From UHGV virus genome UHGV-0865506: a stretch of 43,204 nucleotides of DNA; one strand, written 5' to 3'. Positions 973 to 32,938 of this stretch are shown here, piece after piece. Every line of letters starts with the position of its first letter. Position 1 is the stretch's first letter. This DNA comes from a virus. Below the pieces are notes generated by a model, which was given only the letters and a program-made list of their open reading frames with translations, made no database searches and had not been told where the DNA came from. Made by a program: the position numbers and the translations under genes.

Positions 973-1136
973 GAGAATAGTTACGTTGCCGTTGTGATTC
1001 TTTCGTTTCTTAAAAGAGTACGCAACGCAGTGGGTGGGCGTTAGCCCACCCCAGCGGAGTGAAGTACTCTCTACCTTGCTCACGGCAACTATAGAAACTT
1101 TTAATTATCAGTGACTTGGATATTTAGGCGGGATTA

Positions 1137-1290
1137 ACAATAGACTTTGACCCTTCCGAAAGCGTCAGCGGAACTACACTCAAGTGCCTAATGGCACGCG
1201 TTGCGTTCCCTGCCGCTCCGCGGTCGCTTGCGATATCTCACAAGCTCAGTGAAGCTTAGCATATTTTTAAGTAAAAGTCAATACTAGTAG
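1137..1290. repeat. conserved intergenic element, copy 1 (structured leader with embedded minus-strand promoter)
   Basis: About 150 bp, roughly 80% identical to 32359..32512, with compensatory changes in a hairpin (GTGCC-TAAT-GGCAC here, GGAC-TTAC-GTCC in copy 2). Confidence 0.6.
1253..1281 (-). promoter_or_regulatory. sigma70-like promoter TTGACT-N17-TAAGCT inside repeat copy 1
   Basis: Minus-strand hexamers with 17-nt spacer, conserved in both repeat copies. Confidence 0.4.
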
Positions 1291-1386: not shown

Positions 1387-1557
1387 ATGACTATCAATGA
1401 AGTTGCAGAATTAATCGGCGTCACCCGCCAGACAATCAATAACTGGATTAAGAGTGGAAAGTTTCCTGATTGCAGCGTTAAAGTAATGGGCCGCCGGATG
1501 CCAGGAACATTTGACCGTAATAAAGTTGAAGCATGGATTAAGGAGAACGTGAAATGA
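1387..1557 (+). CDS. helix-turn-helix DNA-binding protein, AlpA/excisionase-like
   Basis: MTINEVAELIGVTRQTINNWIKSGKF is a typical HTH_17/AlpA motif; AGGAGA Shine-Dalgarno; start taken at the internal Met of track ORF 1297..1557. Confidence 0.6.
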   Translation: MTINEVAELIGVTRQTINNWIKSGKFPDCSVKVMGRRMPGTFDRNKVEAWIKENVK

Positions 1558-4657: not shown

Positions 4658-4687
4658 TTGACAACATGAATAGTTCGCTATTATAGT
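4658..4687 (+). promoter_or_regulatory. sigma70 promoter TTGACA-N18-TATAGT
   Basis: Consensus -35 and near-consensus -10; back-to-back with the regulator promoter. Confidence 0.55.
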
Positions 4688-4718
4688 TAACCAATACCAA
4701 ACGAGAGGAGAGAAACAA

Positions 4719-7264: not shown

Positions 7265-7761
7265 GTTTAGTTCGGGAGCGTTTCATTTATGAAAACGGGA
7301 AACTAATCTATCGCCACAATACAAAAAGAATGTTAGCTGGTCAGGAGGCAGGAAGCCTCCACCATTCAGGGTATGTGCAGATCTACATTAATCGTAAGTC
7401 CTACCAAAGAAGCCGTTTAATATGGGAGTACCACAACGGCCCTATACCTGAAGGGTTTGAGGTGGACCATATAAATGCGATAAGAAATGATGACAGGATA
7501 GAGAATCTCCAGTTAATCGCTCATAGCGATAATGTGGCTAAAGGCGGCATTCAAACCGGAAGAAGTCATAACAAAAGCGGGTACACTGGCGTGTTTTGGC
7601 GCAAAAGCCATGGTAAATGGCAGGCTGGAATTACCGTAAACGGGCAATATCGTTACCTTGGACTATTCGAAACTCCTGAACAGGCTAACGTGGCGAGAAA
7701 GAATTTTGAAAGTAATTTGCTAAAAGAAGTTGACTACCGAATAGCGAACTATTATAGTTAA
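7261..7761 (+). CDS. HNH homing endonuclease with AP2 DNA-binding domain
   Basis: HNH motifs (YHNGPIPEGFEVDHINAIRNDDRIENLQLIAHSDN) followed by an AP2-like segment (GVFWRKSHGKWQAGITVNGQYRYLGLFETPEQA). Confidence 0.8.
   Translation: MSLVRERFIYENGKLIYRHNTKRMLAGQEAGSLHHSGYVQIYINRKSYQRSRLIWEYHNGPIPEGFEVDHINAIRNDDRIENLQLIAHSDNVAKGGIQTGRSHNKSGYTGVFWRKSHGKWQAGITVNGQYRYLGLFETPEQANVARKNFESNLLKEVDYRIANYYS
7730..7758 (+). promoter_or_regulatory. sigma70 promoter TTGACT-N17-TATAGT embedded in the 3' end of the HNH gene
   Basis: Near-consensus hexamers; part of a 32-bp repeat shared with 11631..11660. Confidence 0.5.
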
Positions 7762-7821
7762 ATCACTGGCCGGGCAGTTCCCGGAGTAAACTTAAAATCT
7801 AAACTTAATGAGGGCTGAACT

Positions 7822-11389: not shown

Positions 11390-11663
11390 GGGGCGCATCC
11401 AGAAATACGCAAAAGAGCGATTCGAGGCTATCGGCGGCCTCGTACGCAAATTGTCGTACGAAAATAGAGCGGGCGCTCCTGACCTGCTGGTAATTCTCCC
11501 CGGCGGCATCATCTGGTTCGTCGAGGTTAAGAAAGACGAAAACACGAAGCCAGACCCACACCAGCTACGAGAGCACGAGCGGATGCGTAAACGTGGAGCA
11601 AATGTTTTTGTCGTTGGTTCGTTTAAACAGGTTGACGACCTAATAGCGAACTATTATAGTTAG
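11376..11663 (+). CDS. VRR-NUC domain nuclease
   Basis: GAPDLLV...WFVEVKKD matches the PD-(D/E)XK core of VRR-NUC proteins; position after DNA polymerase is typical. Confidence 0.7.
   Translation: MSTPEGRIQKYAKERFEAIGGLVRKLSYENRAGAPDLLVILPGGIIWFVEVKKDENTKPDPHQLREHERMRKRGANVFVVGSFKQVDDLIANYYS
11632..11660 (+). promoter_or_regulatory. sigma70 promoter TTGACG-N17-TATAGT embedded in the 3' end of the VRR-NUC gene
   Basis: Part of the 32-bp repeat shared with 7730..7758. Confidence 0.5.
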
Positions 11664-11693
11664 CCATACACCAACAATATAAGGAATTGAGAA

Positions 11694-23503: not shown

Positions 23504-23532
23504 TTGCACACCCCAATATAATAGGGTACTAT
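23504..23532 (+). promoter_or_regulatory. sigma70-like promoter TTGCAC-N17-TACTAT (TACTATTCA family) driving the rightward cassette
   Basis: TTGCACACCCCAATATAATAGGGTACTATTCA; near-identical to 32569..32600. Confidence 0.5.
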
Positions 23533-23562
23533 TCACTTACACCAACAATGAAGGGGTTTAAA

Positions 23563-24932: not shown

Positions 24933-25402
24933 CATGGAATGATGTTTACGAATACGAAAACGGGAATCTTTACGCTAAGGACAGCGTAAACCCTAAGTAC
25001 CCGAAAGGACGTAAAGTAGGGTATGTGGACCAACGAGGGTATGTAAGAACTAAACTAGGGTCAAAAATGACATTCGCCCACAGAATTATATGGGAAATGT
25101 TTAACGGAGCTATACCAGAAGGCAAGGAGATTGACCATATAAACGGTGTGAAAAGCGATAACCGTATAGAGAATCTTCGACTGTGTGACCGGCGCATAAA
25201 CTGCAAAAATGCAGCAAAGCGCAGGGATAACTCGTCTGGCGTTACCGGGGTTAGTAAAACATATAACGGTAAGTGGGTAGTTCAAATTCAATATAACGGA
25301 AATAGAATAGCCAAGCGTTTCGACAACAAAGAAGACGCCGTAAGATATGCCGAAGGTTTTTACAAAGAAAAGAAAGACTTTACTGAGAGGCACGGAAAAT
25401 GA
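24929..25402 (+). CDS. HNH homing endonuclease with AP2-like domain (third copy)
   Basis: HNH motifs (EIDHINGVKSDNRIENLR) plus AP2-like GVSKTYNGKWVVQIQYNGNRIAKRF. Confidence 0.8.
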   Translation: MTWNDVYEYENGNLYAKDSVNPKYPKGRKVGYVDQRGYVRTKLGSKMTFAHRIIWEMFNGAIPEGKEIDHINGVKSDNRIENLRLCDRRINCKNAAKRRDNSSGVTGVSKTYNGKWVVQIQYNGNRIAKRFDNKEDAVRYAEGFYKEKKDFTERHGK

Positions 25403-25802: not shown

Positions 25803-25830
25803 AAGGCCCCTTTCGGGGCCTTAGTTTTAT
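25803..25830. terminator. bidirectional rho-independent terminator
   Basis: Hairpin AGGCCCC-TTTC-GGGGCCT with T-rich flanks on both strands; separates the rightward cassette from the tail tube gene. Confidence 0.6.
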
Positions 25831-29871: not shown

Positions 29872-29899
29872 GTAAATGAAAAGAGGGACCGAAGTCCCT
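29872..29899 (-). terminator. rho-independent terminator after the major capsid gene
   Basis: Hairpin AGGGAC-CGAA-GTCCCT followed on the minus strand by TTTTCATTT. Confidence 0.5.
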
Positions 29900-29917
29900 C
29901 TCGATTATAGCTTAACC

Positions 29918-31671: not shown

Positions 31672-31753
31672 AGTCAGTATGTCCCCTGGACGTTGGAACC
31701 CGGCCCCCCCGGATTTACATGTCAAGAATAAATTATTCCAACATGCAAGGCAA

Positions 31754-32017
31754 CTATTCCAGAATATTCCTCACGTAATCCTGCAGCATGAACACTTTCA
31801 GTCTTAGTTGCCGTATGCATTCAGCGTTCTGAACGTCGATAGCTAAATCCTCGTCCGAGTCGCTACTTGGCAGCGCCAGTTTGCACGGCGGCTGCATCAT
31901 CGTCGTATCCGGGGATGGAATTGGCGTTGGTGACAGCGCGGGACTTGAGCAGGACGCGAGCATCGTCGAAAGTGCACACGCTGCGGCCAGGCGTTTTAAT
32001 GTACTTAACGACTTCAC
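31754..32017 (-). CDS. o-spanin (Rz1-like outer-membrane lipoprotein), overlapped arrangement
   Basis: Signal peptide with lipobox (MLASC) followed by a Pro-rich segment; reading frame begins inside the i-spanin gene and extends beyond it. Confidence 0.55.
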   Translation of the reverse strand: MKSLSTLKRLAAACALSTMLASCSSPALSPTPIPSPDTTMMQPPCKLALPSSDSDEDLAIDVQNAECIRQLRLKVFMLQDYVRNILE

Positions 32018-32249
32018 GGGTAATCACCTCCGATTTCGTCTTGCCTTCGTTGTCAGCGGCTGCGGCCTTCGATTCGTCCTGCTGCTGCCGTTGTGTTTTC
32101 TTCGCTAACTCAGCCTGTGCTTTCTGCTGTTGCTGCGAAACGAGATTAGCGCGGCCTTCGCCCCAGCCGCTGCGATACTGGTAGATGCCGTGTGCGTAGG
32201 CCAGGATGATGAAACATGCTCCCGCTACGACAGTTGCTTTAAGATTCAT
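31863..32249 (-). CDS. i-spanin (Rz-like)
   Basis: N-terminal transmembrane helix followed by Gln/Ala/Lys-rich coiled coil; AAGGAGAAAC Shine-Dalgarno. Confidence 0.6.
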   Translation of the reverse strand: MNLKATVVAGACFIILAYAHGIYQYRSGWGEGRANLVSQQQQKAQAELAKKTQRQQQDESKAAAADNEGKTKSEVITREVVKYIKTPGRSVCTFDDARVLLKSRAVTNANSIPGYDDDAAAVQTGAAK

Positions 32250-32358
32250 GTTTCTCCTTTCTCGATAAGTAAAGCCCCGCCTTAAAGCGGGGCGCTAGTC
32301 CTTATCATTTAAACATAGAAACGGCGTAATCTCCGTAAACCAGTTACTTTTTACACAA

Positions 32359-32512
32359 GCAATAGACTATGGCCCTTCCGAACGCGTCAGCGTAACTACA
32401 CTCAGGACTTACGTCCCGCTCCGTTACCTGCCCGCGCCGCGGTCGCTTGTTCATACTTCACAAGCTCAGGTGGAGCTTAGCACATTTTTAGTGAAAAGTC
32501 AACTATTCGAAT
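32359..32512. repeat. conserved intergenic element, copy 2
   Basis: Homologous to 1137..1290; lies in the 5' leader region of the spanin/late operon. Confidence 0.6.
32474..32502 (-). promoter_or_regulatory. sigma70-like promoter TTGACT-N17-TAAGCT inside repeat copy 2
   Basis: Same hexamers and spacing as in copy 1. Confidence 0.4.
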
Positions 32513-32568
32513 AGTTTATTCCAACATTTACAATTAGGTGGAATAACAGGAATACGTAAACAAATAGT

Positions 32569-32597
32569 TTGCACACACCAATATAATAGGGTACTAT
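32569..32597 (+). promoter_or_regulatory. sigma70-like promoter TTGCAC-N17-TACTAT (TACTATTCA family)
   Basis: TTGCACACACCAATATAATAGGGTACTATTCA, about 28 nt upstream of the 32625 gene. Confidence 0.5.
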
Positions 32598-32624
32598 TCA
32601 GTTAACTTAAACAGGAGATGGAAA

Positions 32625-32913: not shown

Positions 32914-32938
32914 AAGGCCCCGTAAGGGGCCTTTTATC
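32914..32938. terminator. bidirectional rho-independent terminator
   Basis: Hairpin AAGGCCCC-GTAA-GGGGCCTT followed by TTTTAT; T-rich on the minus side as well. Confidence 0.6.

Follow-up and report, generated by a model that had tools for sequence, protein, structure and literature searches.

A conserved structured RNA leader precedes the spanin genes of Kagunavirus and Jerseyvirus phages

Structure and Covariation of the Leader RNA

The viral genome UHGV-0865506, a stretch of 43,204 nt (hereafter, the window), is a Kagunavirus genome (Guernseyvirinae) with Escherichia coli as its host, and the leader that precedes its spanin genes on the minus strand is a structured RNA of approximately 110 nt, supported by covariation and beginning at the inferred transcription start. 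A preliminary description, made from the sequence alone, had placed a promoter, a conserved leader, a hairpin, a Shine-Dalgarno (SD) sequence, and the ATG of the i-spanin gene in this order on the minus strand. All of these elements were present and are conserved in relatives; the description had not recognized the leader itself as a structured RNA.

The conserved core of the copy that precedes the spanins (copy 2) occupies positions 32360..32470 on the minus strand and is supported by a covariance model, by covariation, and by single-sequence folds. It opens with P1 (32465-32445), a short hairpin that begins 2-5 nt past the inferred start in every variant, and continues after a 2-nt joiner with the long bent hairpin P2-P4 (32442-32378), the tip of which, P4, lies at 32418-32403. 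Within this hairpin, P2 is composed of CCG and GGNGCG paired with CGCN'UU and CGG, and P3 of CAG and GGNAAC paired with GUUN'C and CUG, while a conserved internal loop, with GGAG opposite GAGUGUA, is situated between P3 and the variable tip P4. The core ends in a conserved tail 3′ of P2-P4 (AAGGGCC..GUCUAUUG), which in copy 2 reads AAGGGCC..GTCTATTG and occupies 32377-32360. When folded as single sequences, all 29 distinct Kagunavirus-type cores, which are of several kinds and came from scans of viral contigs, adopted this same architecture.

Support from covariation was obtained at two levels. In a MAFFT alignment of 17 variants, 95.7% of the cells were paired, compared to 32-41% when the partners were slid by 1-3 columns, and changes on both sides were observed at four pairs, including one P2 pair that occurs as C-G, U-A, and A-U. 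The covariance model was built from this alignment, and its 72 matches (42 distinct) showed 96% of cells paired versus 30-41% in the slid controls, with both sides changing in 18 of 29 pairs; the alignment of these matches was fitted to the model and is hence biased towards it. RNAalifold, applied to the same 72-match alignment, independently recovered P1, P2a, P3, and P4. Several of the pairs are G-U, and these make sense only for a minus-strand transcript.

According to the covariance model, the window contains exactly two copies of the core, at 32470-32360 (133 bits) and at 1250-1138 (105 bits), in agreement with the earlier claim that the leader exists in two copies; no third copy was found by the model in the window, the next match scoring 11.6 bits. 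The two copies have the promoter and approximately 110 nt in common, and the differences between them are compensatory, as exemplified by the tip hairpin, with GGGAC-GUAA-GUCC in one copy versus GUGCC-AUUA-GGCAC in the second.

The 5′ arm and loop of P1 are repeated just past the core (32370-32353 vs. 32465-32448), with GCUUGUG..AAGUA occurring twice in Kagunavirus. The Jerseyvirus counterpart of this repeat is GCUUUCAG, also present twice (L074 705-720 vs. 797-812). An alternative long-range helix of 8 bp could form in Kagunavirus between the downstream repeat and the 3′ arm of P1; the repeat is absent from copy 1.

Distribution, Constraint, and Coding Potential

A search with 1.1 kb around the leader matched 300 phage records with identities of up to 96%, most of them from Escherichia and Salmonella phages that belong to Kagunavirus or Jerseyvirus. 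Among phage records, 181 contained the 261-nt segment reaching from the promoter to the SD (178 with an identity of 95-99%), and a Jerseyvirus-type version was found in 269 further records, which gives about 450 in all. The covariance model also matched diverged homologues upstream of the Jerseyvirus spanin genes, with scores of 34-39 bits. A second copy was carried by about 54 of the 181 Kagunavirus-type records (~30%).

When 32 distinct Kagunavirus-type sequences were compared, nucleotide diversity was 0.05 in the promoter, 0.04 in the core, 0.03 in the linker, and 0.03 in the hairpin with its tail. In the same sequences it rose to 0.10 in the spanin gene, to 0.17 at the third codon positions of that gene, and to 0.23 upstream of the promoter. 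The leader is thus 3-5 times less diverse than the third codon positions of the spanin gene (0.03-0.05 vs. 0.17), which indicates a stronger constraint than on neighboring sequence.

At gathering scores, Rfam gave no matches over the whole window, and with both copies as queries at E <= 10 nothing credible was obtained; the best hit, at chance level, was wcaG, which lay on the linker and not the core and scored 19 bits (threshold, 42). The 5,426 complete E. coli genomes contained no match at E <= 1, a search that short seeds would escape. A 23-base pattern run against 185,579 bacterial species genomes gave six matches, of which four correspond to chance in G+C-rich DNA and two are small contigs bearing the phage element. 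The literature search found no paper in which these phages are connected with antitermination or with small or other non-coding RNAs. The leader is best described as a previously undescribed structured RNA family of Guernseyvirinae phages. The two small contigs are L093, a 6.2 kb contig of a metagenome-assembled genome labeled 'Bacillota', which carries a C-type element, and L094, a 738-bp scaffold assigned to Taishania pollutisoli, which carries a Jerseyvirus-type element; both most likely represent phage contamination or mis-binning.

The spanin leaders of Cornellvirus and of Klebsiella phages were not recognized by the covariance model. In the Cornellvirus VSiA (L075 606-900), the spanin leader is approximately 295 nt long and strongly structured (z = -4.4), gave no convincing alignment, and has only ...GGGGATAGTCTATTC in common with the Kagunavirus tail; it could be distantly related or analogous.

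GenBank records of relatives often annotate a 36-aa hypothetical protein inside the core, for example Bas74_0007 (L001 5281-5391). This 36-codon open reading frame (ORF) was rejected as a coding sequence: it lacks an SD, it has no ATG in copy 1, its substitutions follow RNA pairing, and 1-nt indels disrupt its frame in several variants (GCGCGGGCAGG vs. GCGCGGCAGG). The 36-aa 'hypothetical protein' looks like a recurrent mis-annotation. A leader peptide was also set aside, on an informal judgment, since no SD precedes the mini-ORFs of the linker (AUG-UUU-AAA-UGA) and copy 1 lacks them.

The Leader Promoter and Its Upstream Sites

The leader is preceded by an extended -10 promoter of the sigma-70 type (32474..32502, minus strand), recognized from its conservation in relatives and by a pattern scan. 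It is composed of the -35 hexamer TTGACT (32502-32497), a 17-nt spacer, a TGc extension with the TG at 32482-32481, and the -10 hexamer TAAGCT (32479-32474). A simple consensus scan overlooked it because TAAGCT fits the consensus at three of six positions. Both hexamers, like the TG, are nearly invariant across the 32 distinct relatives (more than 90% column identity for each), and the promoter lies where the preliminary description had placed it, at 32502..32474. The spacer bases and the base between the TG and the -10 hexamer vary; invariant hexamers and TG amid a varying spacer are the signature of an extended -10 sigma-70 promoter. The complete 29-nt pattern has two sites in the window, both at leader copies, where none would be expected by chance. 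The transcription start is predicted near position 32467.

Two candidate regulatory sites lie immediately upstream. The first is the motif TGTTGGAATAA, located by a motif scan at 32516..32526 on the minus strand, with a second site upstream of the scaffold gene at 31733-31743; it could be the site of a regulator, and the number of same-strand matches (two) is not significant by itself, as 17 of 100 shuffles also reach two. The second, read directly from the sequence, is a perfect 14-bp palindrome, ACTATTCGAATAGT, at 32502..32515 (minus strand), which abuts the -35 hexamer with its center at about -41.5 and may serve as an activator or repressor site.

A similar arrangement was seen between the o-spanin and scaffold genes, where the segment 31715-31790 (minus strand) contains the second TGTTGGAATAA, followed by a palindrome, GAATAATTTATTC, that abuts TTGACA, and then by a GC hairpin. 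A further late promoter, sharing its upstream site with the leader promoter, may lie in this segment.

Linker and Hairpin Upstream of the Spanin Genes

The core is joined to the hairpin by an A+T-rich linker (32297..32359, minus strand; diversity 0.032) that contains a small hairpin, GTAAC-NNN-(G)TTTAC, of variable loop. A weak promoter-like sequence was noticed in the linker by eye only, composed of TTTAC[T/G], 16 nt, and TATGTT; it is the sole visible candidate for an alternative spanin promoter, and a weak one.

The linker is followed by an extended stem-loop (32264..32306, minus strand) that comprises a lower stem, an upper GC stem, and a U-rich tail, and that resembles a terminator. The lower stem pairs GATAAG (32306-32301) with CTTATC (32269-32264), and part of the 'T-run' is thus base-paired. 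The upper stem (32293-32274) reads GCCCCGC-TTTAAG-GCGGGGC and forms eight pairs closed by a TTAA loop, with a stability of -15.8 kcal/mol. The hairpin and short T-run reported in the preliminary description do exist, while the middle sequence given there (TTTA instead of TTTAAG) and the start (32297 instead of 32293) had to be corrected. The tail, TTTACTTAT at 32273-32265, has five T in its first eight bases, and the corresponding RNA tail UUUACUUAU (5 U in 8) scored -3.99, compared to -3.6 to -5.0 for the other terminator-like sites of the phage. The earlier characterization of the hairpin as terminator-like thus holds in this genome, where it is, from its sequence, a credible intrinsic terminator of moderate strength. 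The region contains five terminator-like sites against 3.0 +/- 1.6 expected, a count that is not significant in itself.

The hairpin was present in all Kagunavirus- and Jerseyvirus-type relatives examined. A relative that retains the leader without the hairpin, named in the preliminary description as an observation that would speak against regulated read-through, was thus not encountered. Its upper stem carries compensatory changes, namely GCCCTGC/GCAGGGC in L003 (C-G to U-A) and GCCCGAC/GTCGGGC in L086 (G-C to A-U), and its loop varies among TTTAAG, TTTATG, TTTACG, TTTAGG, and CTTAAG, with TTAC, GTAA, and TTC in Jerseyvirus. The lower stem covaries as well, with UAUACG/CGUAUA in Jerseyvirus versus GAUAAG/CUUAUC in Kagunavirus. 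The tails are less alike: the Jerseyvirus tail UUAGCGUAU scored -3.04, and in Cornellvirus a long hairpin without a U-run scored -1.56. What is conserved is thus an extended stem-loop, its end 15-22 nt away from the SD that follows, and not a canonical terminator.

The SD of the i-spanin gene, AGGAG, occupies 32258-32254 (minus strand), and the ATG is at 32249. Only 24 nt separate the hairpin from the spanin ATG, which leaves no visible room for another promoter, and spanin expression therefore requires read-through of the hairpin. Expression of the downstream scaffold and capsid genes probably depends on it likewise. The preliminary description had suggested regulated read-through into the spanins and late genes; this is supported in part, in that read-through is required; its regulation is hypothetical, and the U-run is not conserved.

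Gene Context and the Copy 1 Locus

The first gene after the leader encodes an Rz-like i-spanin (31863..32249, minus strand; phrog_2536, E = 3.8e-55), in accordance with the spanin annotation of relatives. Its end is overlapped by the o-spanin gene (31754..31897, minus strand), which was assigned from the annotation of Bas74, a fully annotated relative, and from a match to phrog_5672 (E = 4e-30) over residues 41-87 of an 87-aa ORF. The scaffold gene follows at 31725-30970 on the same strand. In Bas74, the gene order comprises the terminase, portal, head morphogenesis, and decoration protein genes, a small reverse gene, the leader region, and then the i-spanin, o-spanin, scaffold, major head protein, connector, and tail tube genes. 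By the same annotation, the operon headed by the spanins encodes the most abundant virion proteins. The next terminator-like hairpin of this transcription unit is situated just after the major capsid gene, according to the Bas74 gene order, at 29881..29902 (minus strand), and would also need to be passed for polymerase to reach the connector and tail-tube genes.

Copy 1 is located between a divergent helix-turn-helix regulator gene (1387-1557, plus strand) and replication genes on one side and an operon of small genes, holin, endolysin, terminase, and portal on the other, with which it is co-directional. Its promoter (1253..1281, minus strand) is of the same type, TTGACT..TGcTAAGCT. In its core (1138..1250, minus strand), P1, P2, and the tail are unchanged, while P3 and P4 are altered by compensatory substitutions. 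Downstream, copy 1 is followed by a compound stem-loop (1012..1071, minus strand) with an outer stem GAGAGTAC/GTACTC and an inner hairpin GGGGTGGGC-TAAC-GCCCACCC, then TTTT; the terminator scan did not list this stem-loop, which indicates that it is not a canonical terminator. A separate promoter comes next on the minus strand, with TTGCGC (972-967), 17 nt, and TACTAT (949-944), and a gene starts at 908.

Relatives carry cores of types B, C/D, and E/F at the copy 1 locus, with differing downstream hairpins. The E-type core was found at either locus, each time with the local linker and hairpin (L058 vs. L064), which indicates that promoter and core form a module independent of the sequence of the following hairpin.

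The copy 1 locus behaves as a slot for alternative RNA cassettes. At this position Bas74 (L001 36420-36690) bears an unrelated cassette in which the promoter TTGAAA, 18 nt, TATAAT is followed by approximately 230 nt of non-coding sequence rich in hairpins and by the terminator GGGCAGGC..GCCTGCCC-TTTAGTTAC; a closely similar promoter precedes the spanin leader of Cornellvirus (L075:575-600). The C/D-type cassettes of six records (L054, L056, L057, L059, L067, and L070) contain a (CTCA)n microsatellite of 3-6 units, about 190-230 nt after the core start and just before the hairpin GGTGCC-TTCG-GGCACC.

Proposed Function of the Leader

Among the functions considered, we tentatively favor a cis-acting element of antitermination or attenuation. 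The leader unit would head a late operon of spanin, scaffold, major capsid, connector, and tail tube genes, with host RNA polymerase initiating at the extended -10 promoter near 32467. The first ~110 nt of the transcript would fold into P1, then the bent P2-P4 with its conserved internal loops, then the tail GGAAGGGCC. Approximately 65 nt beyond the core, the GC hairpin and its short U-run would stop a fraction of the polymerases, yielding an RNA of ~195 nt, while the remaining polymerases would pass into the spanin genes. The 5′ domain would act in cis on its own transcription complex, either alone, in the manner of the put RNAs discussed below, or by docking a phage or host factor, and polymerases coming from the leader promoter could thereby run through the hairpin of the leader as well as the later terminator that follows the capsid gene. 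Termination at the hairpin, like the effect of the 5′ domain on it, is a prediction drawn from this layout.

Cis action on transcription is favored because the core is always fused to its promoter at the transcript 5′ end, because at both loci the unit heads a long operon co-directionally and is always followed by a stable hairpin, and because a further terminator-like site lies after the capsid gene (29902-29881). It is also favored by the independence of the core from the sequence of the following hairpin, which fits an action on polymerase and not the alternative pairing of a riboswitch.

Several points weigh against this interpretation. The strong conservation of the linker is not accounted for by a cis model, and the separate promoter after copy 1 also fits a free-standing RNA gene. 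The U-run is weak or absent in the sister genera though the hairpin is kept, so that termination is not the conserved property there. The Jerseyvirus jersey UPWr_S1 (L073 750-801) is devoid of the entire P2-P4, reading ACCGCG-AACGCATTCGG, and retains the promoter, P1, the tail, the linker, and the pre-spanin hairpin; unless it is an assembly error, this deletion may mean that the domain is dispensable. No antitermination protein was found among the 81 annotated genes of Bas74, a survey that did not scan every ORF of the window, and the core has no sequence or structure homology to HK022 put. As for transcript data, no transcript ends were found in the literature for any Guernseyvirinae phage, and the sole RNA-seq study of a Kagunavirus gives gene-level classes only.

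The same layout could be that of a gene for a trans-acting small non-coding RNA of ~195 nt (~235 nt for copy 1) that pairs with host or phage mRNAs or sequesters a host protein, the spanin operon borrowing its promoter through a leaky terminator, a less probable but serious alternative that explains much of the same evidence. It would account for the strong promoter of its own, the structure from +1, and a terminator-like hairpin comparable to the others of the genome, as well as for a paralogous copy followed by a stem-loop and then by an independent promoter. The unrelated promoter-RNA-terminator cassette of Bas74 at the copy 1 locus, as if this were a slot for RNA genes, points the same way, and the high conservation, including that of the single-stranded GGAAGGGCC, suits a conserved binding partner. 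However, complementarity to the rest of the phage does not exceed 11 nt, which is chance level, and the complete E. coli genomes gave no match, with the limit for short seeds stated above. The U-tails (UUUA, UUUU) are short and unlike those of Hfq-type small RNAs, and Jerseyvirus, Cornellvirus, and the C/D-type cassettes have no usable U-run, so that most transcripts would continue as mRNA leaders. The element is also always co-directional with the downstream operon.

A post-transcriptional role of the 5′ untranslated region is the other serious alternative and also explains much of the evidence, though it was considered somewhat less probable still. Here, P1 and the stem-loop before the SD would shield the late mRNA from RNase E or exonucleases, and P2-P4 or the extended stem-loop may be processing sites (e.g., for RNase III), resulting in stable and well-translated spanin and capsid messages. 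P1 lies within 2-5 nt of the inferred 5′ end, an arrangement that stabilizes E. coli mRNAs, and it is the stable stem-loop 15-22 nt before the SD, with its covarying lower stem, and not the U-run, that is conserved in three genera; the abundance of the virion proteins encoded by the operon agrees with such a role. Nevertheless, a simple stabilizer needs no 95 nt with internal-loop sequences at 95-99% identity, nor a duplication together with its promoter at a second locus where another promoter follows.

A riboswitch, whose 110-nt domain would recognize a small molecule or ion and, by binding it, control the formation of the hairpin as a terminator, was judged highly unlikely. A conserved domain, a variable linker, and a terminator-like hairpin do make a riboswitch-like layout, and, as the transcript emerges, the GGGC of the conserved tail (probability ~0.58) or P4 (~0.41) can pair with the 5′ arm of the hairpin, a possible antiterminator. 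The candidate complementarity, however, amounts to four G-C pairs, and the core is also joined to hairpins unable to make that pairing, namely those of copy 1, of the C/D type, and of the E type at either locus; on these two grounds the classical antiterminator pairing between core and hairpin was rejected. Furthermore, no Rfam match was obtained for the short region even at E <= 10, and the core consists of two tandem hairpins without a closing helix and with a freely variable tip P4. Least probable of all is a function at the level of DNA or protein, with an origin or primer site for replication, binding sites of regulators past the promoter, and the 36-codon ORF as candidates. It is favored by the hypothetical protein annotated in some relatives (e.g., Bas74_0007) and by the tail ..ATAGTCTATTG, which holds a CTATT half-site recurring in the promoter-associated palindromes of the genome. 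It is opposed by the state of the ORF, which has no SD, is broken by indels, and lacks an ATG in copy 1, and by compensatory substitutions that include G-U, which on the other strand would be A-C mismatches.

Comparison with Known Systems

For cis-acting antitermination, a close parallel in layout is offered by the putL and putR elements of phage HK022, which are cis-acting, protein-independent processive antiterminator RNAs (PMC9378689). The put RNAs begin the PL and PR transcripts, and putL is composed of two stem-loops at the transcript 5′ end (PMC9378689). Like put, the leader RNA takes up the very 5′ end of a transcript that host polymerase initiates at a strong promoter, and it consists of two stem-loops with bulges and internal loops. 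In both systems a genome holds a pair of paralogs, and each of these stands at the head of a long operon with terminators following. At both loci P1 begins 2-5 nt past the inferred start, P2-P4 follows after 2 nt, and a hairpin lies ~65-105 nt downstream. The leader differs from put in the size of its core (~95-110 nt vs. ~72 nt), in its occurrence at the late, structural operon of virulent siphoviruses, whereas put belongs to the early operons of a temperate phage, and in having its second copy in only ~30% of the relatives. Run without filters over the whole HK022 genome, the covariance model gave a best score of 14.8 bits (E = 0.05), downstream of gene Q, and no match at putL (~28311-28238, minus strand).

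The more specific proposal that the domain represents a new class of protein-independent processive antiterminator, put-like in function but unrelated to put, which would make host polymerase resistant to terminators, was considered improbable. Its targets would be the late operon of spanin, capsid, and tail genes and, where the second copy is present, the lysis and packaging operon, with core alleles moving between the loci. Should the leader modify polymerase during elongation, it would join a single class of phage RNA with this known ability, and it could be used as a compact tool for expression that terminators do not stop. Phages of the Guernseyvirinae (Kagunavirus, Jerseyvirus) are common, and their isolation for use in phage therapy and engineering is widespread; a leader at the 5′ end of their capsid operon is a testable handle on late transcription by host polymerase alone. 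If the leader is instead a small RNA or a stabilizer, its recognition still corrects the 'hypothetical protein' mis-annotation and marks a region that engineers should not disrupt.

Another parallel is the late leader of phage lambda, where the constitutive promoter PR' gives rise to a 194-nt '6S' transcript that ends at tR', and Q permits read-through into the lysis, head, and tail genes. Both systems combine a strong promoter, a non-coding leader of ~195 nt, a terminator-like hairpin, lysis genes (here spanins of the Rz/Rz1 type), and head genes. In contrast to lambda, no Q-like gene is annotated in the relatives of our phage, and the lambda leader itself is not a conserved structured RNA, unlike that of Guernseyvirinae. 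When the sequences from +1 to +25 were inspected for a promoter-proximal pause element, they differed among copy 2, copy 1, and the Jerseyvirus type, and no common -10-like hexamer was seen by eye.

The eps-associated RNA (EAR) of Bacillus acts in cis, promotes terminator read-through in a long operon, and is located between genes. The leader resembles it as a structured non-coding RNA in a long operon transcript and would likewise act on terminators irrespective of their sequence. It differs in its position at +1 instead of between genes and in the phylum of its host, and there was no Rfam match, EAR included. With regard to mRNA stability, 5′-terminal stem-loops such as the ompA leader stabilize E. 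coli mRNAs, and the early mRNAs of T7 carry RNase III sites. The Guernseyvirinae leader has in common with these a hairpin a few nt from the 5′ end and a long, imperfect hairpin with internal loops before highly expressed genes; unlike it, those elements are short or idiosyncratic and are not 110-nt domains with conserved loops duplicated along with a promoter.

Other Features of the Window

Palindromes of the form AATAG-N4-CTATT recur in association with promoters at 23504-23539 (+), 32569-32604 (+), ~975-940 (-), 4669-4693, 7716-7764, and 11618-11666 (+), where they overlap the -10 regions of promoters of the types TTGCAC..TACTAT and TTGAC..TATAGT. The same palindrome motif was reported as 'phage promoters' in the description of fBC-Eco01 (tgAATAGTa-ccTATTat-T) (PMC9825357). 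These phages encode no RNA polymerase, and the palindromes look like putative operators of a phage regulator.

Bidirectional terminator-like hairpins at 32914-32933 and 25803-25822 have the common core AAGGCCCC-N4-GGGGCCTT and are situated at convergent gene ends, bounding minus-strand late units. Finally, a direct repeat of 74 nt with 73% identity (7435-7508 vs. 25103-25176, plus strand) lies within two ORFs, and its translation resembles HNH endonucleases, a likeness judged by eye only.

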